42,114 nucleotides of DNA. Origin: a virus (Duplodnaviria > Heunggongvirae > Uroviricota > Caudoviricetes). This document shows, one piece after another, positions 4,311 to 27,084 of this stretch. The DNA is taken from positions 1-42,114 of the IMG/VR virus record IMGVR_UViG_2561511241_000009; one strand, 5' to 3'. The notes beneath the pieces are model-generated. The model ran no database searches. It was not told the origin of the DNA and saw nothing but the letters and a program-made list of their open reading frames with translations. How positions within the stretch are numbered: the stretch's first letter is position 1; each line of letters starts with the position of its first letter. Made by a program: the position numbers and the translations under genes.

Positions 4311-4799
4311 CTATTTTTGCTTCTTCAATGAGTCGTATTGCTGCTCGCAGAATTCCCCTGCAATCCGATACTTTTCAGCCTCAACTGCTGTTGCGTTGTA
4401 AACTCGGTTGCTTTCTTCAAGCATGTCGGCGAGCACACCAATGACCTTGCTGGCTGGCGTGCCAGAGGGGAAAGATCCGGTATAGTGTTCGGCGAGTCGC
4501 TTGGTATTGTCAAGCTCGGCGCGCATGCTGTCAGCAACGGTATTAGCATACTCAGCATCAGCAAGCGCCGCATCGATACGGGATTGTGCTTCACGTTCAA
4601 TTTGTGTTTTCTCCTGCTCACGCTGTGACCTGAACTTATCATCAGCCTGTTTCTGATCTTCCTTCGCCTGCGCATACCCGGCGTCGTACTGACGACTGCC
4701 GTGTGCATTCCAGGCTACAACTCCTGATATGACCAGAACAGCGAGCATCGCCATGATAACCAACTGTTTCCAGTATGCTTTTGCGAATGCCCAGATCAT
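4311..4799 (-). CDS. i-spanin Rz-like
   Basis: N-terminal TM helix then coiled-coil periplasmic region; start overlaps endolysin stop (ATGA); contains embedded lipoprotein ORF. Confidence 0.75.
4325..4573 (-). CDS. o-spanin Rz1-like lipoprotein embedded in Rz (+1 frame)
   Basis: Internal Met starting [17 protein letters not shown] (lipobox LTAC), Pro-rich; fully nested inside Rz. Confidence 0.7.
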   Translation of the reverse strand: MRRLLMLSMLIPLLTACAPSLTIPSDSPNTIPDLSPLARQPARSLVCSPTCLKKATEFTTQQQLRLKSIGLQGNSASSNTTH

Positions 4800-5425
4800 A
4801 CCACCAGCACCTTACTGGCAGTGATGTACCGCGCGCGCCGGTCGTCGATGCCGTTCCGGCCACCATTGATAATCAGAGTTACACGTGCAATATCGCCGGT
4901 ATACTTCATGCATCCTTTGCTGGCGAAGAACCACGCCGCGCTACGAGCCGCGTATTCGTCCTGCGCCAGCAGTTCAGGATTCTCCAGCAGGTCAACTTTC
5001 AGACCGTTTCCGCAGTCACGATAGTTATTCAAACCGGTAATCTGGATAAGCCCGCGCCCACGGTAATTCCAGCCATCGCCTGGAGCATTGTTACCCATGC
5101 GTTTGCTGTACACCAGATTTGCGATCGCGCGCTGGCGATCGAGTGGCAATGGTGGCTCACCAGCACGGCGGCCCAGTGCGTTAGCCTGTCCCTGGGTGAG
5201 ACGCCCAGCCCGAACGAAGTTAGCCAGTCCGGTGACGCTGTAGTTGAAATTTTCCTGCAACCGATTGAAGCCCCCAGACTCATGCCCGACCTGAGCAATA
5301 AACATTGCCTGATCTTCGGGTTTGCTGATACCAAACTCTTTCATCGCAGAAGTTATATGCGAGAACCAGCGTGCGGCCAGCGCCTCGCTAATACCAGCAG
5401 CTCGCTGGAATTGTTTAATCTCCAT
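4796..5425 (-). CDS. endolysin, glycoside hydrolase family 19 (chitinase-like)
   Basis: Motifs [12 protein letters not shown] and [16 protein letters not shown] typical of GH19 lysozymes; sits between holin-like genes and Rz. Confidence 0.85.
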
Positions 5426-5723
5426 GTTTAGACCTCGTTATTTTGAAAATCTGAACGACGTTACCGCGCGTTTTAACAACCGCAGCAAGCATGACAGCGT
5501 TGATAATGACCTCAGATAAATCCACAGCCATTGGCGTGCGTAGCCATATTGCATAGACAGCACGAACTGGAATACTGGCCGCAGCAACAATCAGAAAATA
5601 AGCAAGCCAGCCTCCCCATCTTCGGTGTTGAGAACCGTTACGCCGGAATGTGACAACACGAATTGCTATGCCAGTACAAATAACTGCATTGGTGATAAGC
5701 AAAAAAAGCTCATGCGTTACCAT
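5415..5723 (-). CDS. lysis-cassette membrane protein (holin/antiholin-like, 3 predicted TM)
   Basis: 102 aa, three hydrophobic helices, basic C-terminus; overlaps both neighbours. Confidence 0.5.
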
Positions 5724-6114
5724 CGTCTTTTCTCCCCGGAATTAACTCTCGTGGATTATCGGAGCGGTGATAAAGCCATATACCAATTCGCACGGCGACA
5801 ATTGACGACACAAATGCACCAGCAGAGAAGACGATCCCTTTCTCGAAAGAGTCCTGCGTGATGGTAGGGATCAGGCTGGCTACACCGATAAGGATGGATG
5901 CTGTAGGTTTGTAAAAGAGAAGGCCGCAGAGGAAACTGAGCATAGACAGGAGAACCCGGCGATGAATGGGATACTCGATGGCTGAGGTAACAAAAATTAC
6001 CGCCCCAGCCAAAGCTCCCAAAGCCACCTCTGGAGGAACCCCTGCTATCACCGCAGCAAGAGAACCCGCACTAAGCCACTGATTTAAAGACTCACTGGTT
6101 AGCTGAACTGACAT
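5710..6114 (-). CDS. putative holin (4 predicted TM)
   Basis: Hydrophobic helices and charged C-tail; first gene of cassette; ATG at 6114 with GGTGG RBS (track ORF extends to GTG at 6123). Confidence 0.6.
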   Translation of the reverse strand: MSVQLTSESLNQWLSAGSLAAVIAGVPPEVALGALAGAVIFVTSAIEYPIHRRVLLSMLSFLCGLLFYKPTASILIGVASLIPTITQDSFEKGIVFSAGAFVSSIVAVRIGIWLYHRSDNPRELIPGRKDDGNA

Positions 6115-6359: not shown

Positions 6360-8387
6360 TTATGCTGTCGCATTCCACTCTCCTGTATTCATCACCCACG
6401 CTGATACCACCCTTGAATATACCAATGTGGCTGTGGTCATTTTGATCTGAGATGTATTTGCTCCTGTGACATTTACTGGAACCCCTGCAATAGATAGCGA
6501 TGATATATTTGAACCCCTGAGAATAAATCCAATCTTCTGACCATCATATGGCGTCCCTGTAAATGATATGTTTTCTCCTGATATAACATTACGTCTATAC
6601 CAAGAGAATCCCATATTAATATCAACAGTATTATCTGATAACTGAAGAACACCATTTCTGTTAACTTTTGCCGACGAAAGAACACCAAGATCTGCTGATG
6701 TAATTCCCTGGTCTGATTTCCATGTGTTGATATTAACTACAATGTTGGTCACTGTGGCATCAGAACCTCCATCAATTTTAAAGAATCCACCTGCTCTTGA
6801 TCCATAGACAGGCTCATCAATCAAAGCATTTAGGGTGAGATTGCTTGCACTATAGGCGTTTGCTGGCAGACCAGCAGTTGTTGATGAGTGAGTACAACGG
6901 TGAAATAAAGCACCTACAGAACTCGACATTCTTACGTCTGACGAGCTATTGTTTTCAAAGTACATACCGTAGACTTTTGTACCTTGCGCTTGGTCAAGGA
7001 ACCCATATTTACTGCAATTTTGACTAAATCCACCTACAAATACTACGGCTTCAGTCGGGAATGTATTCACATAGTCCCACGTCGTCTCACCATTAAGACC
7101 ATGCCTAACAATTATTCCGTATTGCGGCATATCAATTTCTGGAGTGCCTGAATAACCATTAAAACCAGTAACTGTTATAGCATTTGCGCCGTTTCTTAAA
7201 AGAAGTCTAATTGATCCAGTGCCACCACCGATAACTTCACAGCCATCTACTTTTAGCCCGTAACATAGAGTGCCAATTTCAATTCCAACGTTGTTGGCGG
7301 CAGTTCCCATATTGACCCACATCATGTCAAGATGTCCATGGTTTCTGAACTTTATCCCTACAAATCCTCTACACCCTGTCTTCCCGCTAATGTCAATTCT
7401 CACGTTGTGTAACTTAACATTCCTTACTCCATTCCCTCCTGAAATTGTCGGATCGCAGGTCATTACTGTCATGTTATTGTTTGCAGGATATAATGTTGCT
7501 CCAGGATCCCACCAAATTTCCGTGTTTGGATATATCGCCCATGCTGTGCTGGTTGTATAAGTTCCTGATGAAACGTATATCTGACCAGCTGATGAAAGGA
7601 TTGACTGTATCTGAGTAGTATTCATAGATGGGTAAATAACCTTCGACGGCTTAACGCTACCTTTATAAGGGTAATCTTCCCAAATGCTGTTCCCGCCCCA
7701 CGAACTACCAACATGCTTATCGAACCCAGGCTGCGCGATCTGTAATAATACGTCAGATGCTGAACCGGATGGTGGCAGTACAGGATAAGGGTTACCTGCA
7801 CTGTCAAACGCAACTATTTTATTTGCCCTAGTCGCTGCGTCAGGAAGTTGAGGGATTTGCTCAGGCACTCGTAGGGTGCGGCTGTAATTATTGCTTGCCA
7901 GCGAGTCGACATAATTCTTTGTAGCCGCGTCCTGTTGGCGTATGGGATCGCGAAGATTTCTAATATAGTTGTTCAAAGCATCATAATAGTTTGCCACGAA
8001 TGATGGCTTGCGAAGCGCTAGGCTAAACCAACTTCTAACCTGCTGTATCAGCATCGTCAGTTTATCGAATGCGTCTTCATGCACCTCAGCGAAGAACTTA
8101 CCCTGGTTGCGCAGATCGGTATCCTGCGTAACCGGTAGCTCTCTTGATATAGAAATCTGATAACCGTTAACCAACGCCTTCGACAGAATTACATTGCCGC
8201 CGTTATACCCTCCCGCACCAGTGACTATGTAATCAGTATCAAGAATCAGCTCTGTGATGTTCTCGTTCAGGTCAACAACCTGCACTACTAAATCAGATTT
8301 CTGGAAAATCCTGAAGGTATAAGGGAATGTCGTTGTAACACCGTTACCGGTGTATTCGTTGTGGTCAACTTCGGTTGAGACCGTCAT
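6360..8387 (-). CDS. tailspike / tail fibre receptor-binding protein with T7 gp17-like N-terminal anchor domain
   Basis: N-terminus YTGNGVTTTFPYTF...VVQVVD...ISISRELPVTQDTDLRN parallels T7 tail-fibre N-domain pattern; long Gly/Asn/Thr-rich body; visibly AT-richer than flanks. Confidence 0.7.
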   Translation of the reverse strand: MTVSTEVDHNEYTGNGVTTTFPYTFRIFQKSDLVVQVVDLNENITELILDTDYIVTGAGGYNGGNVILSKALVNGYQISISRELPVTQDTDLRNQGKFFAEVHEDAFDKLTMLIQQVRSWFSLALRKPSFVANYYDALNNYIRNLRDPIRQQDAATKNYVDSLASNNYSRTLRVPEQIPQLPDAATRANKIVAFDSAGNPYPVLPPSGSASDVLLQIAQPGFDKHVGSSWGGNSIWEDYPYKGSVKPSKVIYPSMNTTQIQSILSSAGQIYVSSGTYTTSTAWAIYPNTEIWWDPGATLYPANNNMTVMTCDPTISGGNGVRNVKLHNVRIDISGKTGCRGFVGIKFRNHGHLDMMWVNMGTAANNVGIEIGTLCYGLKVDGCEVIGGGTGSIRLLLRNGANAITVTGFNGYSGTPEIDMPQYGIIVRHGLNGETTWDYVNTFPTEAVVFVGGFSQNCSKYGFLDQAQGTKVYGMYFENNSSSDVRMSSSVGALFHRCTHSSTTAGLPANAYSASNLTLNALIDEPVYGSRAGGFFKIDGGSDATVTNIVVNINTWKSDQGITSADLGVLSSAKVNRNGVLQLSDNTVDINMGFSWYRRNVISGENISFTGTPYDGQKIGFILRGSNISSLSIAGVPVNVTGANTSQIKMTTATLVYSRVVSAWVMNTGEWNATA

Positions 8388-8491
8388 GTTAAATCTCCAG
8401 ATAGTCGCAGCACCCGTTGCGCCGCATATCCGGTTATTCTATTACCTGAAAAACCATATATGGATAGACAACCCATAAATACGAACAGATA

Positions 8492-8506
8492 TTACCTTTC
8501 AGGTGA
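8492..8506. promoter_or_regulatory. operator-like palindrome TTACCtttcaGGTgA
   Basis: Member of the recurring (A/T)TTACC-N5-GGTAA(T/A) family; one mismatch; ~40 bp upstream of LexA box. Confidence 0.55.
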
Positions 8507-8543
8507 TTCGCAAAACGTGCTGGATAGCAAATAAATTATTTGA

Positions 8544-8563
8544 TACTGTATATTTATACAGTT
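8544..8563. promoter_or_regulatory. LexA (SOS) box
   Basis: TACTGTATATTTATACAGTT = CTGT-N8-ACAG, near-identical to the E. coli consensus TACTGTATATATATACAGTA; 20 bp upstream of ATG 8583. Confidence 0.8.
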
Positions 8564-8582
8564 ATTGCATGGAGAAGATAAG

Positions 8583-8840
8583 ATGCAGCAGTATCACTAT
8601 CCACTGGAAGACGGATTTACCGAAAGGATTCACACGCCGGGAGGCGTTAGATCACTGGTGGAGGGATCGCACTTGATGAAATTACTCCGGGAGCTCGATA
8701 AGGATGGATTTAATGTCGATGGCCCACTTGCCGAACTGACTGCACTGATTAACTACGTCACCAGCTCACAGATGTCTATGCGGGATCTGCAAACACATCT
8801 CGACTATTGTGCCGAACAATTACGAAAACAAACCAGATAA
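8583..8840 (+). CDS. small antirepressor-like protein (stand-alone antirepressor C-terminal domain)
   Basis: GGAG RBS; 85 aa; strongly similar to the C-terminal 65 aa of the BRO-N protein at 9156-9866 (IHTPGGVRSLVEGSHLMKLL...RDLQTH vs IHSPSGVLGLTENSLLMNLL...RDIQTH). Confidence 0.6.
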   Translation: MQQYHYPLEDGFTERIHTPGGVRSLVEGSHLMKLLRELDKDGFNVDGPLAELTALINYVTSSQMSMRDLQTHLDYCAEQLRKQTR

Positions 8841-8871
8841 GGTTTGCAATTACCAAGTGGAGTGCTTATAT

Positions 8872-8886
8872 TTACCTTTGCGGTAA
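8872..8886. promoter_or_regulatory. operator-like palindrome TTACCtttgcGGTAA
   Basis: Perfect match to the recurring palindrome, in the 300-bp non-coding gap upstream of the BRO-N gene. Confidence 0.55.
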
Positions 8887-8976
8887 ATTTACATCGCACT
8901 CCTCTTGTGCCATAGTAATCGGGCACTGGAAAAATCCAGTGCCGGGATTGGCGTCCCGAGTTACTAAGTGGCGCAT

Positions 8977-8999
8977 ACCACGCCAGACGTGGTTTTTTT
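8977..8999 (+). terminator. putative rho-independent terminator
   Basis: CCACG-ccaga-CGTGG then TTTTTTT. Confidence 0.55.
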
Positions 9000-9155
9000 A
9001 TGCGTTAAGCACAGCCATATCCGAATTATGGTGGGCTGGGCAGGGGTCCGAAAGGACGCCGGTACCACTTAGGCCGGTACGCCAACCTTGTCCAGTTCAC
9101 CACCAGTAATTGGCGTTGCGGTGGTGATTAAAATCACTAAGTGGAGATAACCACC

Positions 9156-9866
9156 ATGGCTAATGCTCAAACTGCCATCTTCAAATTTGAATCTGTTAAC
9201 CCTATCCGTTCCATCATTATCGATGGCCAACCATGGTTTGTAGCCCAAGACGTTTGTAGTGCGCTGCGTATCCAAAACGTCACCCAATCACTTGAAAAAC
9301 TGGATGATGATGAAAGGTCTATGTTCAACATAGGGCATGAACATCGTGCAATTTTTGATAGCCGAGTAAAAGAGCTCAACATCATCTCCGAGTCAGGCCT
9401 CTACACACTGATCCTCCGCTGCCGCGATGCGGTGACACCAGGCACTATCCCCTACCGCTTTCGTAAATGGGTTACAGGTGAGGTTCTTCCTCAGATCCGC
9501 CGCACCGGAAGTTACATTAAAGACTCGCTCCCGCAGGAAGAACGCATAAAGATGGTTGCCGACCAGGTAGCCAACGCCACGGCGTCAGCAGTAATACAGG
9601 CAATGAAGATAGAGAACAAAACCTACAGTGCCCCACTGAAGCCCGGCTACCGCAGCCTGATTCACTCGCCGTCTGGTGTTCTCGGCCTGACGGAGAACTC
9701 ACTGCTGATGAATCTGCTGAACCAGTTGCAGGACGACGGGCACGACGTATCTGGCGCGGCGGCGGAGCTGACCACCATGTTCTGCTACATCGTCGGTGTG
9801 AGCAAATGCCTGCGTGATATCCAGACGCACGCGGAGTACATCAACGACAAGGCAGGGTTCTTCTGA
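9156..9866 (+). CDS. BRO-N domain antirepressor (KilA-C/Ant-type C-terminus)
   Basis: N-terminus IFKFESVNPIRSIIIDGQPWFVAQDVCSAL fits BRO-N pattern; C-terminus paralogous to 8583-8840 product; GGAG RBS before ATG 9156 (track ORF starts at GTG 9141). Confidence 0.7.
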   Translation: MANAQTAIFKFESVNPIRSIIIDGQPWFVAQDVCSALRIQNVTQSLEKLDDDERSMFNIGHEHRAIFDSRVKELNIISESGLYTLILRCRDAVTPGTIPYRFRKWVTGEVLPQIRRTGSYIKDSLPQEERIKMVADQVANATASAVIQAMKIENKTYSAPLKPGYRSLIHSPSGVLGLTENSLLMNLLNQLQDDGHDVSGAAAELTTMFCYIVGVSKCLRDIQTHAEYINDKAGFF

Positions 9867-9875
9867 CAGAACGGC

Positions 9876-9896
9876 GGCACAGGGATGTGCCTTTAA
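9876..9896 (+). terminator. weak terminator-like hairpin
   Basis: GGCACA-ggga-TGTGCC then TTTAAATAATT. Confidence 0.4.
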
Positions 9897-9939
9897 ATAA
9901 TTCTGTACAGATTGCAGACTGTGGGTGAATAGCGTACTA

Positions 9940-9954
9940 TTACCTTAAAGGTAA
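9940..9954. promoter_or_regulatory. operator-like palindrome TTACCttaaaGGTAA
   Basis: Perfect palindrome immediately abutting the AGGAGG RBS of the 9967 ORF. Confidence 0.55.
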
Positions 9955-9966
9955 AGGAGGCGCGAT

Positions 9967-10134
9967 ATGACAGCGTTGAAAAATCGTACTCAGCACAATG
10001 AACAAGCCAAGCAATGCTGGGATGTCATTGGAAAAGTTATGCTTGGCCGCGCAAGCAAAGAGCGCGACAAGGATATGGTTTACCAGACAGGAACATCTTT
10101 CAGCGACTTCAAGGCGGCATTTCGCTCCAAATAG
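9967..10134 (+). CDS. hypothetical small protein (55 aa)
   Basis: AAGGAGG RBS with 6-nt spacer to ATG; open 55-codon frame; absent from ORF track (below 60 aa). Confidence 0.5.
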   Translation: MTALKNRTQHNEQAKQCWDVIGKVMLGRASKERDKDMVYQTGTSFSDFKAAFRSK

Positions 10135-10154
10135 AAGCACATCAGGAGTTTTCC

Positions 10155-10595
10155 TTGAAGTTTAACATTAGAATATCTAATAGTTTTCTACATGGGGAAA
10201 GCAACACCCCTTTCGCTGTAGACGGACCTTTCCTTACTGATGATGAAATAAAAATCATACAAAGTTTTTTAGAGGATGTTGCCAATGGAAGGGCGCTTGT
10301 TGGAAAAAACAAGCCCTCGTGGGTTGATGATAACCATGATAAAATTCCCGGCTCAGACAATTATGAGCAAGAGAATTATTGGCATTATCATTGTGGGCCA
10401 ACATGGTATCCAAACACATTTAAGAATTATACCATTAACTTAAATTTCAACCCTGGCGGAATGCATTCTAATGAATGCATTCATTATGCAAAAAATGATA
10501 ATGAAATTGTCATTGTTGGATTTTCAAGAGAACACATACCTTTCCTTTCATCAGATGGAAATAACAATCCGCTTTTTAATGATGAAGAAGAATAA
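10155..10595 (+). CDS. hypothetical protein, AT-rich cargo gene (TTG start proposed, 146 aa)
   Basis: AGGAG then 6 nt then TTG at 10155; no in-frame ATG before residue ~130; strong AT-rich codon bias (many N/K/I/F); acidic C-tail; no recognisable family. Confidence 0.45.
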   Translation: MKFNIRISNSFLHGESNTPFAVDGPFLTDDEIKIIQSFLEDVANGRALVGKNKPSWVDDNHDKIPGSDNYEQENYWHYHCGPTWYPNTFKNYTINLNFNPGGMHSNECIHYAKNDNEIVIVGFSREHIPFLSSDGNNNPLFNDEEE

Positions 10596-10689
10596 GCCCG
10601 CGCTGCGGGATTTTTTGTGGACGAAACAAAAGTCAGTGCTAACACTCATTGACGCCACATTGAGGTGGCTTATAGATGGAAATTTCACA

Positions 10690-10851
10690 ATGAAAAAAGC
10701 ATTTGCTGCACTGTTCGTTTTGTTGTCTCTGGTAGCTTCAACTCAGGCCTTTGCCGGTCGTTGTCAGCACGACAGCGACACTGCTGCTGACGGCTCCCGC
10801 TGCGGTGGGCGTTCTGCGGATTCCCGCCCGGGTGGCGGTGGCATTCGTTAA
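10690..10851 (+). CDS. hypothetical secreted small protein (53 aa, signal peptide, 2 Cys)
   Basis: MKKAFAALFVLLSLVASTQAFA signal peptide with AxA cleavage site; Gly/Arg/Asp-rich mature part; weak RBS. Confidence 0.4.
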   Translation: MKKAFAALFVLLSLVASTQAFAGRCQHDSDTAADGSRCGGRSADSRPGGGGIR

Positions 10852-10857
10852 AAACAA

Positions 10858-10873
10858 GGCCGCGAAAGCGGCC
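10858..10873 (-). terminator. terminator hairpin for the leftward structural operon
   Basis: GGCCGC-gaaa-GCGGCC; on minus strand followed by TTGTTTTTAA. Confidence 0.6.
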
Positions 10874-10889
10874 TGTGACATGTCACGAC

Positions 10890-11303
10890 TTATAAAGATG
10901 ACTGATATTTTACAACTCTGTTCATGGCATCTTTTTTCACCGAGCTGATATCAGTTCTTATTTTGGCTTCGTCATTACTGCTTATCATGCTATTAATTTT
11001 TTGCACTGACATGCCGTTTCTTTCAGCCATTGCACATACAGCAGCATCGTATGAAGAACTCGCTGCGATGGATATCACCTTGTTACACTCAAACACAGCA
11101 CCTTCAGCAATATCAGATGCCGATGAGGCTGGCTTGGTATAAGTCTTGACGTAGTGATCAATACAACTATCCTTCGCCGTCTTGGCAAGAGAAAAATCCA
11201 TTTTAACTTTGTCGCAATATGCCTTATCAACACCGTCATAAACATCATAGGATGTCGAGCAAGCGGATATCAAAAATACCGATAACAGCAATAATTCCTT
11301 CAT
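10890..11303 (-). CDS. phage lipoprotein (cargo; superinfection-exclusion candidate)
   Basis: Signal peptide plus lipobox (LISAC); AT-rich; last gene of the leftward structural operon. Confidence 0.6.
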   Translation of the reverse strand: MKELLLLSVFLISACSTSYDVYDGVDKAYCDKVKMDFSLAKTAKDSCIDHYVKTYTKPASSASDIAEGAVFECNKVISIAASSSYDAAVCAMAERNGMSVQKINSMISSNDEAKIRTDISSVKKDAMNRVVKYQSSL

Positions 11304-11312
11304 TGTTGTTCC

Positions 11313-13787
11313 TTATTGCGGAGTGACATCCTGAGGTCGCCACCAGTATGTCTGGTTAAACTCTTTCTTCGAACGTTGCTCCATTTTACGCAAATAGCCT
11401 GGTGAAAAATACTCCTGCATCTGATTAAAGATCATGTGATCGAGAGCCGCCTTCAAGTACCAGAGATTCGCACCAGGCATCAAACCTTTCCCAAGCTTAA
11501 CCAGATCACCACCAGTCTGCTCATTCTTCCCTTCCACAGCATTTAACGGTATGCCCTGAGCAATCTTCACTACGTCATCAACCAGACCAGCTACCGGGCC
11601 AAGCATCGACGCTAGTGCGCCGCTCCCGTACCTGGTGTGGTCAGAGAAAAGAAAATCACCATACAACCCTGCCCCACCACCTTTTAAAAATGCATTTATC
11701 CAGAATTTAACCATGTTGTCACCGGTCATTTCTTTTGGATTTCTCCCATTAATAAGATCAGTAATCTGCATGGAAAGAGCACCAAGCATGGTTGTGCTTG
11801 CTAAAAACGTTGCTATATATGCCGCACGCCCACCAGCAGACGGCATCCCCATAGCTCTATGCCAGTGACGCATAACTACCGAGATAGGGAACGATTTAAA
11901 CAGGAAAACACTTCTCGTTAATTCACCTTTCCATGTTCCACGCTGAAGACCAGACCCTACGAACATCCGTTCACGTGCGCCCGGTGTAATAACAGCCATA
12001 TCAACTTCTTCAGTTACGGCACCGAGCAGTTTACGCATTGCCTCAAATTTCACACGTTCAGGCTCACCAAGATGTTTAACTGCTGAATCAGGGATACGCA
12101 TAATGCTTTCCGGTGTCAGCATCGTATTATTACCGTTCCCCCAGTCCTCCTGTTGCGCCAGCTTCCATACGCTCCAGTCTGTGTCAGTAATCCCTTTGCT
12201 TTTCAGGATACGAAAATCATAGTCATCGAGGCTACGAAGGTCTGGTGTCCGTGACACTACTTCTCCCAGGCTTCCCATCATGGTTACGCCATAGGCGCGC
12301 TTGTGCGCATCTGACCATGCTGTAAGCCCACTGGCACGCATTACCGCCGTTGCCGCCCAACGAGACACTGACGGCCCCATATTATCCATCGCCCAGCGGT
12401 TAACGCTGCCAAGTAGAGATTCCATCGCCAGACCAGCGCGGCGCGCCCGCGCAAGTTCTGTACGGTTCGTTGGGTCCATAGCTTCAAGCTGGTTGCGGAA
12501 TAACTGGTTCATTGGAAGGTTGGTAACCTTCGCAGACAGATACATGGTTCCAAGATCAGAGAACGATGACAGCAACGCGGATCCGAGTCTGCTGGCAACC
12601 AGCCAGTTGCGGATATTGTCAGACCATCGCGCGATGTGCGGATTCGCTACAGGCTGTGTCTTTCCGGAAATAAAGTTGTACAGGTTCTCTGTTTTGTTCG
12701 CCAGCCGCTCGACTTTACCGGTTTTACTCGGGTTAGCTGTTGCCGTTTCTGCCTTAACCTGATCAAGAAGGGAGCGGAAAACATGATCGGGGTTTGGACC
12801 ATATGTTTCCACCAGTGCAATATCTTTACTGATACCTTCCAGGTGACCGACCATGATTTCCCATAGAGAGCGATCGCCATAAAGTTGCTGATATTGCAGA
12901 TAGGAATCTGCATCTTTGAAATGTATCTGTCGTGATGCATTACCACGGTTAGCACGTGCGCCGGAAATTCGCATTCCGGTATCAGTAAGCTTATTCAGCC
13001 CACCAGTAGCGATCGTGTTATAAGCCTCTCCAAGAAATGCAGACAACTCGGCATCGTTCATCAGTTGTCCATCGGCTCGGATATAATATTTGCGATCCAG
13101 CTTACCTATAACATCGCTAACCCACTTATCCTTTGATACCGCCCCAACCTTTTCCATAGAATGATGTTGAGGGATCCCCCAGTTTTCGAGATAGCCAATG
13201 TCCCCACCAGCATCATTAAACCGGCGGCGCAGTAGCTCTGTCACTTCTCTCCACGCCTTAGCACCTTTTCTTGCTTTAGCATTGCCAGTATTTTGCCCCC
13301 GCATTTCATATACCAGGTCACGTACGCCCGCTTCATCTTCAAACAGACCAAAAAAGCGAGGATCAACTGCTTCGAATGCCTCCTGCAATTGACTCAATGC
13401 ATAATCACGGGTGGCTTTTGTTCTGGATTCAACAGAGAGGAAATTCGATTTACCGTCTGCATTAAAAGCAATAGTACGGTTAAGAGCGCCAAGTTTCCCA
13501 TCAGCCCCTTGATAGCTATTGATAAATTTATCCAATCTCTGACGTGCGGCTATAGTGAGGGCCACACGACGTTTCTTTAATGCCGCTTCTCGCTGTAATT
13601 CTTCAGATGCCAATTGTGCTGCACGATATAGCCGCTCTGATTCGGAAAGTTGTCTCCACGACATCGGGTCATCACGAGCAATGGAGCGCATATTTCGATA
13701 AATGCGGTCTTCAATGTTCTGTATTTCTCGCGCCGTTAACGTGCGCTGCGCCGCCTGCTGGACCGCTTGTATACATTCCTGTCTCAT
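11313..13787 (-). CDS. large internal virion (core/ejection) protein, 824 aa
   Basis: One of three consecutive large structural-module genes between tail tubular genes and tailspike, as in T7-like/epsilon15-like podoviruses. Confidence 0.5.
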   Translation of the reverse strand: MRQECIQAVQQAAQRTLTAREIQNIEDRIYRNMRSIARDDPMSWRQLSESERLYRAAQLASEELQREAALKKRRVALTIAARQRLDKFINSYQGADGKLGALNRTIAFNADGKSNFLSVESRTKATRDYALSQLQEAFEAVDPRFFGLFEDEAGVRDLVYEMRGQNTGNAKARKGAKAWREVTELLRRRFNDAGGDIGYLENWGIPQHHSMEKVGAVSKDKWVSDVIGKLDRKYYIRADGQLMNDAELSAFLGEAYNTIATGGLNKLTDTGMRISGARANRGNASRQIHFKDADSYLQYQQLYGDRSLWEIMVGHLEGISKDIALVETYGPNPDHVFRSLLDQVKAETATANPSKTGKVERLANKTENLYNFISGKTQPVANPHIARWSDNIRNWLVASRLGSALLSSFSDLGTMYLSAKVTNLPMNQLFRNQLEAMDPTNRTELARARRAGLAMESLLGSVNRWAMDNMGPSVSRWAATAVMRASGLTAWSDAHKRAYGVTMMGSLGEVVSRTPDLRSLDDYDFRILKSKGITDTDWSVWKLAQQEDWGNGNNTMLTPESIMRIPDSAVKHLGEPERVKFEAMRKLLGAVTEEVDMAVITPGARERMFVGSGLQRGTWKGELTRSVFLFKSFPISVVMRHWHRAMGMPSAGGRAAYIATFLASTTMLGALSMQITDLINGRNPKEMTGDNMVKFWINAFLKGGGAGLYGDFLFSDHTRYGSGALASMLGPVAGLVDDVVKIAQGIPLNAVEGKNEQTGGDLVKLGKGLMPGANLWYLKAALDHMIFNQMQEYFSPGYLRKMEQRSKKEFNQTYWWRPQDVTPQ

Positions 13788-13792
13788 TTAAT

Positions 13793-15595
13793 TTAACCTC
13801 TCAAGAAACACGCCACAGCGACATCAAACAGGCTGGAATCCTGTATTGCCTGCTCACTTTCCCTGTTCGCTTCATCCAGTACTTCACGCGCGCTGCGCGA
13901 TTGTGGATTACCATCATCATCCAGCACGGTGATTATCATGTCCGGAGATTCAAGCAGCGAGTCTTCAGCTATACGCAGATCAATATCTCCTGCCGGATCT
14001 GCCATCATTTTTTGTTCTGTCTGTTGCAATATCTTACCGGGCTCAAAAGGAGCTACTTCGTCTGGCGTCCTGACCTCTGCTGTTTTATAGAATGAAACAG
14101 CCTGAGCATTAAGTTCACTTTCTGCCTGCTGTCGTCGTGCCAGTTCTGCTCGAGCTTCAAAAAACTGACCGCCAGGCTCATGCGGTGCCAACGCGTTACG
14201 GGAAAATTCCAGGCGCTCTTGTGCCTGCCGGATTCGTTGGTCAATATCGCGAAGTCTGACCTGTTTATCTGATCGAGCACGAGACAAAGCTTTACCGCTA
14301 CCGGTTGGCTCTTCTGCAAGAATTTGTGCGCGCTGTTCAGTGAGATTTTCAATAATTCGTTGGCTATTAGCGATTTCAGACTGGTAAACCTGTCTATCGC
14401 CACGCGGCAAAAGCTGCGCGGCCTGTTCTTCAAGCAACCGATTTTCTATAGCGCGCGCCGTTACTCCATCATCTACAGATGACAGAGCCTCATTAACTGC
14501 CTGAGACAGCAGACTCTTGCGCCCAAGAATTTCACTGAAAGATGCAGACTCAACAATGCTGGCAACGTCTACAGGTCTCCCCTCGCTAACATCAGACATA
14601 GCTTTTCTCAGAGCCTGAATGTGAGAATTGCGCGAAAGCACGTTGATCGGCACGCCTGGCGCAATATCAATTTCAGCATGATGAGCGGCATTCGCCGCCA
14701 GTGCAGCATCAACATCAACTGGTGAAAAATTTGGTGCGCTTGTAGACTCGCCGCGAGAGTTAATAAATCTGCCGACACCACCAAACGCCACCCCAAGAAC
14801 AGCATCAATAGCAATTGCCTGTCGATCCAACACATCATACTGGTTAGCCATTTCGCTATAGCCACCATCACGAAGCGTTTTTGCAGTAAGCCCACGCTGT
14901 GCCATACCGAACGCAATATTTGTACCTGCGGCATAGGCAATATCTGGCGTTGCACGTACTGCTGTTGCTGCGGCGCGTCGCACTGAACTTTCACCCGTCC
15001 GCGCAAGCTGAGCCGCCACACCTTCCGCCAGCGCACCGCCAGCACGTAACCCGAGGCTCATTGGGATCAGTGTTCCGGCACCAGCAGTAATACCCTGCAC
15101 TAATCCTGCTTCCTGCGCCGTCCTGAAATCAACACCCTGTGCTGTCAGCCGTTCAAACTCAGAAAAACCCTGTAGCGAAGTTACCGCCGCTGCACCTCCG
15201 ACCGGACCACCGAGCGTTGTACCGACAACAGCCTGCCCGCCCATATCGAACAACCCATAAAGAACCTGCCCGGCGGTTCCGGTTGTCGCGGCATCAGGCG
15301 TCAGCCGCTTAACCTGCTGCTCTGCTAGTTTTCTCTGCTCGGCAATGTATGAAACTGAAGTGTCATTGAGCGAGGTGTTTTCGTTAACAAACTGAGCAAT
15401 CGGGGATACGATTTTATCCATCCCTGCCCATAGCAACTGGTCTGGCTTTGCCACCAGCCCGGAGTACAAACCAGACAATGCCGCTCCTACAGCATTGTCG
15501 AAAAAACCAACATCGCTGTTAAAGCCAGCTGGATTTGATGCTGCTTCGTCAAGCTGCTGATTCTGGTTTACTGGATTAAGGCCAAAGTAACTCAT
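13793..15595 (-). CDS. internal virion (core/ejection) protein, 600 aa
   Basis: Ala/Gly-rich, coiled-coil segments; start overlaps upstream gene stop. Confidence 0.5.
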   Translation of the reverse strand: MSYFGLNPVNQNQQLDEAASNPAGFNSDVGFFDNAVGAALSGLYSGLVAKPDQLLWAGMDKIVSPIAQFVNENTSLNDTSVSYIAEQRKLAEQQVKRLTPDAATTGTAGQVLYGLFDMGGQAVVGTTLGGPVGGAAAVTSLQGFSEFERLTAQGVDFRTAQEAGLVQGITAGAGTLIPMSLGLRAGGALAEGVAAQLARTGESSVRRAAATAVRATPDIAYAAGTNIAFGMAQRGLTAKTLRDGGYSEMANQYDVLDRQAIAIDAVLGVAFGGVGRFINSRGESTSAPNFSPVDVDAALAANAAHHAEIDIAPGVPINVLSRNSHIQALRKAMSDVSEGRPVDVASIVESASFSEILGRKSLLSQAVNEALSSVDDGVTARAIENRLLEEQAAQLLPRGDRQVYQSEIANSQRIIENLTEQRAQILAEEPTGSGKALSRARSDKQVRLRDIDQRIRQAQERLEFSRNALAPHEPGGQFFEARAELARRQQAESELNAQAVSFYKTAEVRTPDEVAPFEPGKILQQTEQKMMADPAGDIDLRIAEDSLLESPDMIITVLDDDGNPQSRSAREVLDEANRESEQAIQDSSLFDVAVACFLRG

Positions 15596-18105
15596 TGCGG
15601 AATATCTCCGGAGAATCTCTGACGCTTCTGTGTCAGATTAAGAACAACGGGAGAACCATCATCTTTCAGTAGATAACCAGTACCAAGTTTCACCAGGTAC
15701 TGACTATCGCCGTAACTTTGCAAACCATACTGACCAGGCGGTGTTTTTATCCCGGAGCCGACAACTTGTTCATTCCAAGCCTGATTAACCTGCTTATCGA
15801 ATTGCTCTGCAGACATTCCCCACGGCAAAAGGACATTCCCCATTCCGTTATAGTCATGCACGCCACCTGTAGCTACGTTAACAGCCTGTTTCCAGACATC
15901 ATTGTCAATTTCGCCTGATACCACGCCTTTTTTCGCCATCACACCAGCGTAATAATCCTTTGCGATCTCGTATGCCATTGATGCTCCCTGAGCGTCACCA
16001 GCAAATGCATCCTTCACCATGTCAGAAAACTCAAAGCGAAGATCAGCATCTTTAGGCATCGGAATACCTTTCGCGTCATCAGTACCTTTACGAGCCGCCG
16101 CGCCAGCAAGAATTGTCTGCGCAGCGGTTTCAGGAGACACGGAAACATCCGGATTAAACCAGTTTTTTTCTGCCAAAATACCACCTGGCTTATCCATCAG
16201 TATCCCGGCAACGGCAGCAGATGGAGCGTTGGCACTGATCTGCTGTAGTGCTGACATATACACCTGCCCACCACCAGTGCTCTGCCTGATGGTATCGAGA
16301 TATGCTGCCTGTTGGGAAACGGGCGCATCACGAAAGAAAACACCGATCTGATTGGCCTCGTCTTTGGAAAAGAACGTCAGTGGAGTGCCATATGACTTAG
16401 CAAGGTCACTGACCTGAGCAGCTCGCAAGGCAACGCTCTGTCCAAAGTTATCCTTATTGCTCATGTCGATAGGCTTTGCCTGTCCGGCGGCAAGAGAGAA
16501 CTGTACAGGATCAGCCTGTCGCTGCTTTATCACCTGACTTGCAGCCGACACAACGTTGTCATAAAGAGCGGCTCGTGCCGCATAACCCTCCCCTGTCTCA
16601 CCAGTATCCGGGCGTAATTGCTCAACATATGCTGTAATGCTGCTTGTCGGCATGTTGCGGAAAGAGCCTATATACTGTCCGGCGATTTGCGTATTTCTGA
16701 ACTCGGTATATCGCAGGTTTCCTTCTCTGACTCCATAAGCTGCAATAAAATCAGCCTCACCAGGTGGGTTAGGAAATTCAACGCCACGCATATACGCAGC
16801 TGTCGCATCGCGAACCTGGCTGTCAATCATCGTTTTATATTCAGCCTGCTGCTGCCGACGCAGTTGATCCGCCTGTCGCATAAAACTTGCCTGCGCCTCA
16901 GGAGATGCCGCATCGAATGCTGCATTACCGGTATAGCGTTTGGTGTTGGTTGGAATTGTTGATAAACCAAGTGCTGCACTGACACCAGCAGTTAACTGCT
17001 GATCACTGTATGGCTGGCTACCGTTCTCATGATGGATAATGGCTGCACAAAGCGCCTTCAGGGTATCAGGATTAGATGCATCGAGAGGCTCATCAGCAGA
17101 AACGCCAAGTTGTTCGCACACTGCTTTGATATACGACATAGTGTCATTTTTATCAGTAGGCGGTGCCCAGCGATTAATTATCTCGCTGACGGTATCAATA
17201 CCCTGCCTCTGATACGACATCAGGTTCCGCCCTAATGCACGAATCCCGTGTTCAGGTGTTTCGAATTTCGCAAATCGACCATCATCACCGGTCTGGCCTA
17301 CCCACGGATTAGTTTTGCTGTATTCGAGATTTCCTGGGTTATTGTTGCGTATGCCACGGGCACGCTCGGAAGAGTCACTATCTGCTACAGCACGGCGAGC
17401 TCCAGCTGCAGTATCACTTAACTCGCCATTACTTTGGATGAATGCGGTCGCATTGTTTGCCGACCACTGGGACAATGCGGCATCAGCAACCTTCTCTTTA
17501 AACTCGATTTTCTTGGCCTGTATTTGCTCGTCGCTCCAGCCATGCGCAATGCCGTAATCCTCAATTTGCTGGAAAGTTTGCTTATTAGCCAATATGTATG
17601 CGGCGTTGTCGCCATACAATGCTGCGGCATTTTTACCATTGTTCAGCAGCGTAGCCTGAAACTGGCCTTCTTCGTAGGCATTTATTTGCCCTATCTCGTG
17701 CCGCCCGGCCTGCGTAGTGAACTGAATGCGCTGCTGCTGCGCCTGCTGCATGAAAGCATTACGAGCCTGTTCATCCGGCAGCGACATAGCCAGTTGTTCG
17801 ACCTGAGCATCAAACTGCTGCGTATACTCATGGCCTTTTCCAATAGCATTTTTCCCTTTCAGGTTAAGCAATCCTGTTTCAGGATTATTCAGCAGATCAC
17901 TGCTTATCTGACTGAGGTTAAGAGATGCCTCCTGAGCCAGAGCGATATTGGCACGCTGTTTTGCCTGACCAAAAACATCAATAGCCTCTGCCCCTGCCCG
18001 AACAAAAGCATCACCAATACCTGGCTGAGAAAACGTCTGCAAGCCTGCTGACTGAACTCCACGGCTCTCAACCTGACGTCCGGATACTGTTGGTACGACT
18101 GGCAT
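15592..18105 (-). CDS. internal virion protein with possible cell-wall-degrading segment
   Basis: Central RGIRNNNPGNLEY...FAKFETPEHGIRALGRNL segment resembles virion muralytic domains; GGAGG RBS before Met at 18105 (track ORF extends to 18180). Confidence 0.45.
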   Translation of the reverse strand: MPVVPTVSGRQVESRGVQSAGLQTFSQPGIGDAFVRAGAEAIDVFGQAKQRANIALAQEASLNLSQISSDLLNNPETGLLNLKGKNAIGKGHEYTQQFDAQVEQLAMSLPDEQARNAFMQQAQQQRIQFTTQAGRHEIGQINAYEEGQFQATLLNNGKNAAALYGDNAAYILANKQTFQQIEDYGIAHGWSDEQIQAKKIEFKEKVADAALSQWSANNATAFIQSNGELSDTAAGARRAVADSDSSERARGIRNNNPGNLEYSKTNPWVGQTGDDGRFAKFETPEHGIRALGRNLMSYQRQGIDTVSEIINRWAPPTDKNDTMSYIKAVCEQLGVSADEPLDASNPDTLKALCAAIIHHENGSQPYSDQQLTAGVSAALGLSTIPTNTKRYTGNAAFDAASPEAQASFMRQADQLRRQQQAEYKTMIDSQVRDATAAYMRGVEFPNPPGEADFIAAYGVREGNLRYTEFRNTQIAGQYIGSFRNMPTSSITAYVEQLRPDTGETGEGYAARAALYDNVVSAASQVIKQRQADPVQFSLAAGQAKPIDMSNKDNFGQSVALRAAQVSDLAKSYGTPLTFFSKDEANQIGVFFRDAPVSQQAAYLDTIRQSTGGGQVYMSALQQISANAPSAAVAGILMDKPGGILAEKNWFNPDVSVSPETAAQTILAGAAARKGTDDAKGIPMPKDADLRFEFSDMVKDAFAGDAQGASMAYEIAKDYYAGVMAKKGVVSGEIDNDVWKQAVNVATGGVHDYNGMGNVLLPWGMSAEQFDKQVNQAWNEQVVGSGIKTPPGQYGLQSYGDSQYLVKLGTGYLLKDDGSPVVLNLTQKRQRFSGDIPQ

Positions 18106-18650
18106 TATAATCCTCCGGGTAATCTGGTTCCTGCTGCTGCCCCGATTGGCGCAGGAGTGCTTTGAGTAAACGGACTCCACGTCCCACCAAACATCTGGTA
18201 CGCACCGTATGCCTTCAGAGGCGCGGTGAGCAATGTTGTTGCTGCTCCCACATTCCCCTGTTTACGGGCTGAACTGGCTTCTGCTTTATAGTTGGCAGCC
18301 TGAACCTGATAACCGTAAGCCTCGCGTTGCGCGTTATTCACCGTCGTCAGCGAATCAAGAGCGCCAAACTGGGCAGTGTCGCCAAATATATCCAGCGCGT
18401 TACCTGTAGATAAATCAGCGCCGGTAGCCCCCATTGTCGCCGCCTGTGTACCAAGCCGCTGTCGGGTCTCTCTGCGCCGTTGCTCAGCTTCAGCGTTACC
18501 TCTGTTTATTGCATCATTTGCCTGAGCTGTGGCTATATCTGCGTTCGCTTCTGCAACCTTCGAGACATACTTTCCCTGTTGGTACTGGGTGTATGCCTGA
18601 ATGCCACTCATGGCGAGCATTGCGCCACCAGCAATAACCGGATCGCACAT
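18105..18650 (-). CDS. virion structural protein (hypothetical, 181 aa)
   Basis: Position in structural operon; Ala/Gln-rich. Confidence 0.4.
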   Translation of the reverse strand: MCDPVIAGGAMLAMSGIQAYTQYQQGKYVSKVAEANADIATAQANDAINRGNAEAEQRRRETRQRLGTQAATMGATGADLSTGNALDIFGDTAQFGALDSLTTVNNAQREAYGYQVQAANYKAEASSARKQGNVGAATTLLTAPLKAYGAYQMFGGTWSPFTQSTPAPIGAAAGTRLPGGL

Positions 18651-19114
18651 TATTTTCTCTCCATGTGAAATCTGTGGAAATTAAGACCAAGAGCACCATA
18701 AGGCGCGGCTTCTTCAAGCCTGAATCCAAGCCAGTGCAGCCATGCTTTGGCAACATGGTTTCGCTCGTCGACGTAGTTTTCCAGGCGCGGATAAACTGCC
18801 AGCATCTGCTGCAATACAGGGCGGCAGTGGCGCAGAAATGTCTTCTGATATTTTTCAATACGGCTGGTTCCTACCAGCCAGGGCGTACCATTGCCACCGA
18901 TCATTGACGCCGGAGATACGCCAAACATGGTTACCAGTTCTCCGTTCGCAAATCCTGACCAGGCCATAGTCGCAGTACGCAGACCAACACGCAGCGCATC
19001 TTCGGTAGTCATCAGTGATACCGCATACAGTTCGTCAATATCAGCCTGACGAACATCCGGCAAAATCATCTGAAGATGCTCTTCGGTTGCGGGAATAATT
19101 TGAACATCGATCAT
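18650..19114 (-). CDS. virion structural/assembly protein (hypothetical, 154 aa)
   Basis: Position in structural operon; start/stop overlaps with neighbours. Confidence 0.4.
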   Translation of the reverse strand: MIDVQIIPATEEHLQMILPDVRQADIDELYAVSLMTTEDALRVGLRTATMAWSGFANGELVTMFGVSPASMIGGNGTPWLVGTSRIEKYQKTFLRHCRPVLQQMLAVYPRLENYVDERNHVAKAWLHWLGFRLEEAAPYGALGLNFHRFHMERK

Positions 19115-21585: not shown

Positions 21586-22193
21586 CAGGACAACCTCGCA
21601 ATGGTAAACTCGTCAACCGGTGGCTGTGGTTCCTGTGATTCATTCTGGCTATGCGAGCCAGCACTAAGAATCACGCGATTGTACATATTGAGGGCAAACG
21701 TACCGAGGTCTGCATTCCCAGTCAGCGCCATGTTAATAGCTGCCGCAAGACGCCAGGCCAACGCCTCCATAAAAATGGCATCAAACATGTTCACATCTGA
21801 AACGCGAGAGACATACTTGAGCCATGCCTGCGGCTGGTCTGTGTAGATCAACTTTCCTGTTCCGTTGGTGTCTGCACCAACTTCGTACTGAACGCGCATT
21901 GCTGCTGTTGGATTGCGTACACCAGGAAGCATAATTTCAGTAATGCGCAGACAATCGGACGGGTACTGGTACGCATATTCCCAGTCAGGCGGTGGATTGC
22001 TCGTATCTGCAAGCGCCACGCGTTTGGTAGCAAAGTTCCAGTCAAAATCAGAAAGAACAGCATCACGGCAGGCCTCAAAGTGCAGCGAACATTCACCCGC
22101 TTCCTTGCTGGCTTCCGTCAGGCTGTTAATACTGCGGCTGTTGCCAATATTGGACAGCGCACGATTACAGATCTCTACTACAGAGGCCATCAC
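21585..22193 (-). CDS. tail tubular protein A-like (adaptor), 202 aa
   Basis: Size and N-terminal pattern (ALSNIG...SL.E) similar to T7 gp11. Confidence 0.5.
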   Translation of the reverse strand: MMASVVEICNRALSNIGNSRSINSLTEASKEAGECSLHFEACRDAVLSDFDWNFATKRVALADTSNPPPDWEYAYQYPSDCLRITEIMLPGVRNPTAAMRVQYEVGADTNGTGKLIYTDQPQAWLKYVSRVSDVNMFDAIFMEALAWRLAAAINMALTGNADLGTFALNMYNRVILSAGSHSQNESQEPQPPVDEFTIARLS

Positions 22194-22519
22194 TCACCTC
22201 CGTTACCGTACAGAGTTTCAGCCGCTGATTTTTCTACATCCCTGGAAACAGGAGCGATCGCCATATCAGTGATCTGCAGATCGGCGCTGCGATTAACACC
22301 ATCGTCAGTTTCTCTGGCAGACAGGCCTCGAATAACAGCCTTTGCAGTTATCATCACTTCTGTTCCGACGCCCTGAGGTTGCGCCTTCAGCTTATTCAAT
22401 GTGTCGTTATTAAGAGTGATGCACAGCCCCCACGGGTATTCATCGCGAGTTCTGGTTTCTCCGCTCTCATCCTGGTAGCTGTCAGTGCCGGTTTTGAGGT
22501 TTACGAGTTCCATATACAC
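22190..22519 (-). CDS. hypothetical virion protein (109 aa)
   Basis: ORF in structural operon; ATGA overlap with downstream gene. Confidence 0.4.
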   Translation of the reverse strand: MYMELVNLKTGTDSYQDESGETRTRDEYPWGLCITLNNDTLNKLKAQPQGVGTEVMITAKAVIRGLSARETDDGVNRSADLQITDMAIAPVSRDVEKSAAETLYGNGGE

Positions 22520-22563
22520 TCCTGCAATAAAGGGGCCGAAGCCCCTTGTCTGATTCGCGAGGC

Positions 22564-22908
22564 TTACACGCCCAGTTCTTTACGCTTATCTGCGATCTTC
22601 TCGCGGAGCGTTTCGGCTTTGGCGTTATGGTGTGGCTTCTCGTTAAAGAGCAATTCGTACTCTTCACGGAGCTTATCCAGTTCATCATCATCTGACACAT
22701 CGTTGATGATTTTGGTGCTGGTTGCTGCCATTGACACCTTTCCTGCAACTTTTGCTTTTGCCTGTCTGGCTGCATCGTTAACAGGTTCCAGTGCGCTACC
22801 AGGCTCACCTTCGTATTCGATTTCTGCCCCCTCCGGCCACAGAGTGTTATGGATATGAGAGAGGCGCAGAACGCGGTATCTTGGTTTCTCACCTGACATC
22901 GATATCAC
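22564..22908 (-). CDS. hypothetical virion protein (114 aa)
   Basis: ORF in structural operon; followed by GGGGC-cgaa-GCCCC hairpin. Confidence 0.4.
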   Translation of the reverse strand: MISMSGEKPRYRVLRLSHIHNTLWPEGAEIEYEGEPGSALEPVNDAARQAKAKVAGKVSMAATSTKIINDVSDDDELDKLREEYELLFNEKPHHNAKAETLREKIADKRKELGV

Positions 22909-22909
22909 C

Positions 22910-23347: not shown

Positions 23348-23398
23348 CTTCTTTCTCCATTAGTGGGTCTGTTACGACCCACAGGTTAATAACAGGCG

Positions 23399-24391: not shown

Positions 24392-24399
24392 TTCCTCTC

Positions 24400-27070: not shown

Positions 27071-27084
27071 TTCAATGACTCCGG

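Follow-up and report, generated by a model that had tools for sequence, protein, structure and literature searches.

The window analyzed here, a 42,114-nt stretch of DNA (IMG/VR virus record IMGVR_UViG_2561511241_000009), represents a prophage of the epsilon15/phiV10-like type (Uetakevirus) from E. coli UMNK88, and its positions 9900-10620 are 100% identical to the UMNK88 chromosome (NC_017641.1). Two small open reading frames (ORFs) of this prophage, ORF1 and ORF2, form a swappable cassette in a slot between the tail-fiber gene and the virion-protein genes, the position at which a first-pass annotation of the sequence had placed a cargo operon. The predicted fold of ORF2, its conserved residues, its linkage to ORF1-like partners and the mobility of the pair suggest that ORF1 and ORF2 probably constitute a new RelE-fold type II toxin-antitoxin-like family, with transcription controlled by the phage repressor through an operator-type palindrome at their putative promoter. 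The cassette and its immediate flanks comprise the following features, with positions counted along the window and protein lengths in amino acids (aa).

9912-9940 (+), putative σ70 promoter of ORF1-ORF2, recognized by eye: TTGCAG (9912-9917), a 17-nt spacer and TACTAT (9935-9940)
9940-9954 (no strand assigned), perfect operator palindrome TTACCTTAAAGGTAA (TTACCTT-A-AAGGTAA), a copy of the epsilon15-type Rep site ATTACC-N5-GGTAAT
9954-9960 (+), Shine-Dalgarno sequence AAGGAGG of ORF1, 6 nt before the ATG at 9967
9967-10134 (+), ORF1, putative minimal antitoxin (toxin-binding module only), 55 aa; phrog_8607, E=3.6e-39
10144-10148 (+), Shine-Dalgarno sequence AGGAG of ORF2, 6 nt before the TTG
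10155-10595 (+), ORF2, putative RelE/YoeB-fold endoribonuclease toxin, 146 aa, TTG start
10597-10619 (+), intrinsic terminator found by a terminator scan, CCCGC-GCT-GCGGG (10597-10609) followed by ATTTTTTGTG; it ends ORF1-ORF2 and forms the right boundary of the slot
10690-10851 (+), ORF3, gene for a small secreted or membrane-associated peptide, 53 aa; phrog_14503, 'membrane associated protein'

This layout agreed with the first-pass description of a palindrome abutting an AAGGAGG ribosome-binding site, then a 55-aa ORF, then a 146-aa ORF with a TTG start and an AGGAG 6 nt upstream; the TTG itself stood, and only the starts implied for ORF2 and ORF3 were off by 1-2 nt. All three genes are labeled 'hypothetical protein' by PGAP, the Prokaryotic Genome Annotation Pipeline of NCBI, and scans of ORF1-ORF3 against Pfam, NCBIfam and PADLOC gave zero matches. 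The earlier statement that none resembled a nameable family held to that extent, but all three fall in PHROG families and the structure prediction that had been recommended as a check gave ORF2 a RelE/ParE fold. A literature search on the WP accessions of these proteins and on toxin-antitoxin systems in Uetakevirus found nothing relevant.

The AlphaFold model of ORF2, built with 27 homologues, was confident (predicted local distance difference test score, pLDDT, 92; predicted template modeling score, pTM, 0.87) and showed the N-terminal strand, two helices and antiparallel sheet of three to four strands that characterize the RelE/ParE fold. The proteins listed with this model were RelE, a Helicobacter toxin, YafQ, YoeB, HigB, ParE and BrnT. 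Among 57 distant relatives (22-37% identity), H77, H79 and H127 were invariant and G50, N52, K53, Y78 and Y111 were at least 90% conserved, and these residues lie on, or right after, predicted strands. As mapped onto the model, this would be the pattern expected of the RNase branch of the fold (YoeB, YafQ and HigB), and the predicted placement of conserved His, Lys and Tyr residues on strands and just after the last strand would be a likeness to YoeB, RelE, YafQ and HigB, with which ORF2 also shares the presence of a small upstream partner gene. In contrast to these toxins of approximately 85-95 aa, ORF2 has 146 aa, with long insertions between strands (residues 55-74 and 80-107) and an acidic tail, and their Pfam and NCBIfam models miss it. 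ORF2 also falls outside the YoeB/Txe family, with a partner that has no YefM/Phd match. Judged by its model, then, ORF2 represents a family that is new in sequence but has the fold of known toxins, enlarged by insertions and an acidic tail. The family is rare, with 36 clusters among 5.8 billion proteins and 121 representatives among 1.84 billion, and the PHROG family to which ORF2 belongs (phrog_5954) is of unknown function. Six distant relatives (P0088, P0109, P0112, P0120, P0126 and P0143) bear extra domains: two have an N-terminal CxxC...CxC zinc-ribbon-like extension, one has an N-terminal extension lacking the motif, and the rest have a C-terminal extension of approximately 100 aa.

The TTG start of ORF2 is also the PGAP call, and homologues start at the same MKF/MKI residue. 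Thirty-seven Enterobacterales loci retain it, the most divergent of them at 52-60% protein identity, and relatives with 59-77% protein identity retain a Shine-Dalgarno-like element ahead of a TTG. The AT-rich composition noted in the first-pass annotation was evident (GC content of 0.32-0.41, vs 0.45-0.58 in the surroundings), and the proportion of nonsynonymous differences (pN, 0.12-0.13) compared to that of synonymous differences (pS, 0.76, saturated) indicated purifying selection. A perfect 9-nt inverted repeat (arms 10106-10114 and 10153-10161) links the final stretch of ORF1 to the TTG of ORF2 and persists only in close relatives. We considered it as a hairpin that masks the TTG for translational coupling and did not retain this idea, its z score being only −1.86 and its arms being kept only where the coding sequence is kept.

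ORF1 aligned end to end with the last approximately 50 residues, a conserved module, of the partner proteins that adjoin ORF2 homologues and are variable in the rest of their length. These partners span 55-211 aa, making ORF1 the minimal form, and within the shared module R28 was invariant and S44 and A51 were nearly invariant. The partner proteins, ORF1 included, had no Pfam family match and none was of the RelB, YefM, DinJ or HigA type, a further difference from the YoeB, RelE, YafQ and HigB systems. The AlphaFold2 model of ORF1 consisted of a helix (residues 2-31), a loop and a second helix (45-53), which we infer to resemble the toxin-wrapping segments of antitoxins, and contained neither a ribbon-helix-helix nor a helix-turn-helix (HTH) DNA-binding fold. 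The antitoxin-borne DNA-binding domain and autoregulation of type II systems were therefore not found in ORF1. A ratio of nonsynonymous to synonymous substitution rates (dN/dS) of 0.13-0.16 indicated purifying selection, and the exact ORF1 sequence occurred on at least 1000 contigs. In Pasteurellaceae and Neisseriaceae loci (L011, L012, L017-L022, L025 and L026, upstream of a toxin gene at approximately position 3001), the partner has a hydrophobic, signal- or anchor-like N-terminus, with only the last approximately 50 aa resembling ORF1. The frames of ORF1, ORF2 and ORF3 were all conserved in related prophages, as opposed to the decayed frames that would have spoken against functional genes.

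Analysis of the genes upstream of ORF2 homologues revealed a tight association with the ORF1 module. Of 102 loci surveyed across genomes, IMG/VR viral contigs, plasmids and assemblies, 97 had a partner with the module next to the toxin gene, with gaps of −1 to 31 nt, and the linked loci covered Enterobacterales, Pasteurellaceae and Neisseriaceae. In the UMNK88 prophage the two genes run in the same direction, ORF1 first, with a gap of 20 nt. The pair was also found in the same Uetakevirus slot of a Pectobacterium assembly, in the nin region of Klebsiella lambdoid prophages, and in Pasteurellaceae and Neisseriaceae genomes and viral contigs; the toxin occurred in Aeromonas as well. ORF2 homologues were present in 37 plasmid records, the best 15 of which were cryptic plasmids of 2.6-4.6 kb from E. 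coli, Salmonella, Klebsiella, Citrobacter, Edwardsiella and Providencia; the other records included Aeromonas and Vibrio plasmids. Three plasmids inspected in full contained little besides replication functions, and the partner module was scored in two of them, with a matching upstream frame seen by eye in the third. In five loci (L016, L073, L075, L026 and L107), belonging to Canicola haemoglobinophilus, a Neisseria metagenome-assembled genome and viral contigs, the toxin gene was frameshifted or truncated and the partner was intact.

The pair thus shows the organization of type II systems, two small co-directional genes with the partner first that move as a unit between unrelated replicons, and the tight linkage, combined with transfer among prophages and very small plasmids, is characteristic of toxin-antitoxin modules of the addiction type. 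The module is mobile and old, and its relatives, spread over many genera, show 40-75% identity. The proposal that the cassette was a recently acquired moron therefore stood only in part, with the cargo slot confirmed and the recent acquisition weakly supported.

The boundaries of the slot were sharply defined by comparison with related prophages. On the left, TTGCAG-17-TACTAT and the palindrome are common to all variants, and divergence begins right after the palindrome; the putative ORF1 promoter is accordingly kept in all four slot variants. On the right, the terminator is kept, with a changed loop, in prophages with different cargo, and the terminator, the spacer and ORF3 are common, nearly base for base, to prophages with other slot contents. 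Among complete E. coli genomes, 199 match the region and 77 of these carry ORF1-ORF2 (77 of 5426 complete genomes overall); among the matches listed, those with less than 80% coverage span the promoter/operator stretch only. Besides ORF1-ORF2, the slot was found with the following contents.

TL-2011b and FDAARGOS_1285, a 59-aa ORF and a 181-aa YafO-family toxin; gp44 of TL-2011b matches PF13957 (E=8e-6, 26.3 bits)
a 108-aa ORF and a 170-aa YafO-like toxin, matching PF13957 at E=9.5e-4, under the cutoff
a single 211-aa protein of unknown function
phiV10, nothing

YafO is a RelE-superfamily, translation-dependent mRNA interferase (PMC2814082), and the annotation of YafO toxins in two of the other slot contents speaks for ORF2 being a toxin as well. 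The YafO pairs of these E. coli prophages resemble ORF1-ORF2 in occupying exactly the same slot, with the same promoter, operator and terminator, and in having a small ORF in front, but their partners show no detectable similarity to ORF1. We considered whether ORF2 is itself a divergent YafO, given the resemblance of motifs and the shared slot, and dropped this idea in favor of an analogy, as the profile-profile comparison was not significant and PF13957 matched none of the 57 ORF2 relatives. In Klebsiella phage ST512-KPC3phi13.3, the equivalent slot (L114, 1796-2408) holds a 70-aa and 132-aa gene pair with no Pfam match, which may be another toxin-antitoxin-like cargo.

The palindrome at 9940 overlaps the −10 element of the putative ORF1 promoter and runs straight into AAGGAGG. 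Its TTACC-N5-GGTAA core occurred 13 times with at most one mismatch in the window (0.66 expected), a number reached by none of 100 shuffles. The copies, with one degenerate site, are at the following positions.

8492, 8872 and 9940, each overlapping a promoter-like −10, before an 85-aa ORF, the BRO-N gene and ORF1, respectively
36253 and 36301, with a degenerate copy (two mismatches) at 36284, between cro and the repressor gene
37013 and 37075, a short way past the repressor gene, at a promoter of the TTGACA type
27382, 30528, 30546, 33891, 33953 and 35916, ahead of gene blocks

The same ATTACC-N5-GGTAAT motif is labeled 'protein_bind repressor, lysogeny' at equivalent positions of the epsilon15 record (NC_004775.2), and in the related Salmonella phage SPC32H a Rep tetramer occupies palindromic sites and is dismantled by the antirepressor Ant (PMC9638917). 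Like the epsilon15-type operator, the motif in the window is over-represented, clustered at the immunity region and overlaps promoters; the core is identical to that of the epsilon15/SPC32H sites, which are likewise scattered ahead of these gene blocks, with a cluster at the repressor gene. By sequence and position, the palindrome at 9940 is the immunity (repressor) operator of this phage, to which the repressor would bind, and such sites probably allow the repressor to silence many prophage promoters directly. The difference from epsilon15 is that one copy here gates an inserted toxin-antitoxin-like cassette, epsilon15 having neither a BRO-N gene nor a cassette at that position. The first-pass view of the cassette as operator-gated was thus correct in that an operator-type palindrome is present, but this type of site also occurs elsewhere in the phage. 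A moron for lysogenic conversion with constitutive expression would not be expected to carry a phage repressor site.

The putative ORF1 promoter itself scored 7 of 12, under the threshold of the promoter scanner. Its layout, with the palindrome overlapping the −10, matches that of the scanner-detected promoters at 8465-8493 and 8843-8872, and the same layout was seen by eye in the TTGACA promoter beside the repressor gene at 37075. We also considered the palindrome as an autoregulatory site of the pair and rejected this, as the motif is phage-wide and most other contexts of the pair (in Erwinia, Pasteurellaceae, Neisseriaceae and several viral contigs) have no upstream copy of it. Klebsiella lambdoid prophages L108 and L109 carry one perfect copy, TTACCATTAAGGTAA, at 9391-9405, 55 nt upstream of a three-gene cassette in the nin region (a 95-aa protein, a 102-aa partner and the toxin), and their own cI-cro regions are without the TTACC-N5-GGTAA motif. 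This copy may have been left over when the cassette was captured from a Uetakevirus, or it may be bound by a different protein.

Taken together, these results lead us to favor, with somewhat better than even confidence, a toxin-antitoxin-like pair under phage control, which also makes the toxin/immunity function listed among the first-pass candidates the best reading for ORF1 and ORF2. Transcription from the 9912-9940 promoter would start inside the operator, at approximately 9947, and would be blocked by bound repressor. Judging from the translation signals, ORF1, with its strong Shine-Dalgarno sequence and ATG, would be made in excess over ORF2, with its TTG start 20 nt after the ORF1 stop, and ORF1 would bind and mask ORF2. 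Free ORF2 would cleave mRNA, probably on the ribosome, with His77, His79 and His127 together with Lys53 and Tyr111 as the presumed catalytic and RNA-binding residues of the His cluster. Because ORF1 is without a DNA-binding domain, transcriptional control would be supplied by the phage. The presence of a phage-wide repressor site before the pair argues for repression in the lysogen and release on induction or infection, that is, once the repressor is lost or where it is absent. The P1 phd-doc operon is a plasmid/phage addiction module. ORF1-ORF2 resembles it as a two-gene toxin/antidote module found on temperate phages and small plasmids, but the ORF2 fold is unrelated to Doc and the prediction for the ORF1-ORF2 promoter is control through the phage repressor, not through autoregulation by the antitoxin.

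Several observations weigh against a RelE-type toxin-antitoxin assignment. Pfam at E≤10 matched neither ORF2 nor any of its 57 relatives, ORF2 was unmatched in NCBIfam and PADLOC, PDB sequence searches with ORF2 and with the family profile gave chance matches only, and a Foldseek comparison of ORF2 to the BFVD viral models gave nothing significant. The hhalign comparison of the ORF2 family with the YafO-like slot proteins was not significant (E=0.013, probability approximately 3.4%); it pairs WHYH with RHTH and TS..VIHY with TSD.FLVY, a plausible register with a weak score. The comparison with YoeB was also not significant (E=0.031, over only 37 columns), and this weak alignment places ORF2 GKNKPS55 on YoeB GKGKPE46 (YoeB sequence verified as 2a6q_E), so that a GK(N/G)KP loop would be shared. 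The assignment of the invariant residues to an active site is a prediction from their conservation and the modeled fold, and ORF1 was modeled alone with modest confidence (pLDDT 75, pTM 0.38). In addition, the Pasteurellaceae and Neisseriaceae partners, at 160-211 aa with hydrophobic N-termini, are unusual for antitoxins, and a repressor-held promoter is hard to square with addiction of the classical kind in a lysogen.

This last point concerns the role of the pair, which may lie in addiction, in defense or in the lytic cycle; the tiny plasmids argue for addiction and the operator argues for expression on induction. One proposal, which we put forward only tentatively and regard as rather unlikely in its full form, is that the phage retains toxin-antitoxin logic with transcriptional control handed to its immunity operator, such that the pair is active only after repressor loss and the slot swaps RelE-superfamily pairs. 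Under such an arrangement, the pair would be switched on by induction, by antirepressor action or by entry into a naive cell, and would act in the lytic program or as a commitment or anti-competitor device.

A function confined to the lytic cycle is, in our estimate, a little less probable still. T4 RegB is a RelE-like nuclease that inactivates mRNAs, and by analogy ORF2 could be an early phage endoribonuclease that reprograms host or phage mRNAs after induction, with ORF1 as a timing inhibitor or chaperone and not as an addiction antitoxin. Such a role would suit a repressor/Cro-type operator overlapping the −10, as at the early promoter beside the repressor gene, the adjoining antirepressor operon, the RelE fold of ORF2, and its size, which exceeds that of classical toxins. 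However, the same pair occurs on the 2.6-4.6 kb plasmids and at unrelated prophage positions without this operator, and the strict partner linkage and toxin-only decay look like the behavior of a toxin-antitoxin system.

We give a low probability to the proposal that ORF1-ORF2 is an accessory pair, for example a regulator or anti-defense factor, that uses a RelE-like shape with no growth inhibition. This would account for the failure of every toxin-family sequence model to match ORF2 and for the fact that all database names for the pair are 'hypothetical protein', but it is difficult to reconcile with the invariant or nearly invariant His, Lys and Tyr residues, the presence of the pair on tiny plasmids, the frameshifts that hit the toxin alone in some loci and the sharing of the slot with annotated YafO toxins. 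Lower again is the probability that ORF2 poisons DNA gyrase, as ParE does, instead of cutting RNA: ParE has the same fold, but the three invariant histidines with Lys and Tyr are typical of the RNase branch and the alternative slot cargo is of the YafO type, that is, mRNA interferases.

The least probable reading is that of the first-pass annotation, a single ORF1-ORF2-ORF3 operon with a private operator, expressed in lysogens for exclusion or abortive infection; the three genes are indeed close together on one strand and ORF3 appears exported, like many exclusion proteins, but the terminator hairpin at 10597-10609 and its T-run separate ORF2 from ORF3, ORF3 and its upstream region are kept with four slot contents and with other cargo in Klebsiella phages, and the operator is phage-wide.

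ORF3 is a separate gene for a small exported peptide, as predicted from its signal-like N-terminus, which by eye reads MKK / AFAALFVLLSLVA / STQAFA-G and is followed by a predicted mature part, GRCQHDSDTAADGSRCGGRSADSRPGGGGIR, with two conserved cysteines, in agreement with the earlier description of a 53-aa protein with a signal peptide and two cysteines. Database names include 'transmembrane anchored protein'. E. coli prophages with different slot contents encode an identical ORF3, and a homologue in Klebsiella Uetakeviruses (82-86% identity) keeps both cysteines yet stands beside other cargo. Since ORF3 is kept whatever fills the slot, it is a conserved accessory gene of the phage group and not a member of the cassette; a periplasmic exclusion or conversion function would be a low-confidence guess. 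A hairpin, GCCAC-N6-GTGGC, lies upstream of ORF3 at 10654-10669 and is kept in the Klebsiella Uetakeviruses (L113/L114, approximately 2466-2482), where the loop differs and one of the pairs is G-U; the hairpin may have a regulatory role for ORF3. Converging on ORF3 is a lipoprotein-like ORF of 137 aa at 10890-11303 (−) (phrog_8691). At this position relatives encode proteins of 46, 98 or 144 aa, or one of 118 aa that has hydrophobic stretches, and the position may be a second variable cargo slot beside the internal virion protein gene.

The wider gene surroundings of the cassette are as follows.

4311-6114, lysis genes
6360-8387 (−), tail-fiber gene
9156-9866 (+), BRO-N antirepressor-type gene, upstream of the slot; Pfam Bro-N, E=4.7e-19, and PHROG anti-repressor families
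11313-27291 (−), virion genes
35986-36216 (−), cro-like gene
36371-36955 (+), HTH repressor gene, 194 aa
40864-42114, integrase gene

The BRO-N gene was thus located before the cassette, as first annotated. In the 194-aa repressor, residues 106-147 form an HTH_3 domain and an S24 peptidase domain is missing, which fits induction via an antirepressor, not RecA-mediated cleavage. Just upstream of the BRO-N gene, Rfam identified an isrK-like Hfq-binding RNA at 8923-8999 (+) and a C4 antisense RNA at 9024-9107 (+), both at 66 bits, and a C4 a1/b1 target element at 8910-8962 (+) scored under the gathering cutoff. This arrangement of RNAs is reminiscent of the immI-type system of P1/P7, where an antirepressor is under antisense control. 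Related phages have the HTH protein as their repressor and a BRO-N protein that favors lytic growth, and overexpression of the BRO-N protein of the related phage ZX5 shifted the phage towards lytic growth (PMC9782041).

Over 9900-10900, Rfam gave no match except a chance Trp-leader on the terminator, and no tRNA genes were found in 8000-12000. A 'Gp49 family' gene at 27998 was considered as a second RelE-like toxin and rejected, as it belongs to PF13876, the N4 gp49/Sf6 gp66 family. Outside the prophage, over positions 1-2180 at the left end, the RefSeq annotation shows an IS1A transposase gene directly beside a truncated pdeF pseudogene.

If our preferred assignment is correct, the type II repertoire would gain, with ORF1-ORF2, RelE-fold toxins of a new sequence family together with a new kind of antitoxin module. 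Related pairs occur on small plasmids of several pathogens. The epsilon15/phiV10-like prophages would also contain an exchange slot, reaching from a repressor operator to a terminator, that swaps different toxin pairs, which raises the question of why a temperate phage would place a toxin-antitoxin pair under its own immunity repressor.

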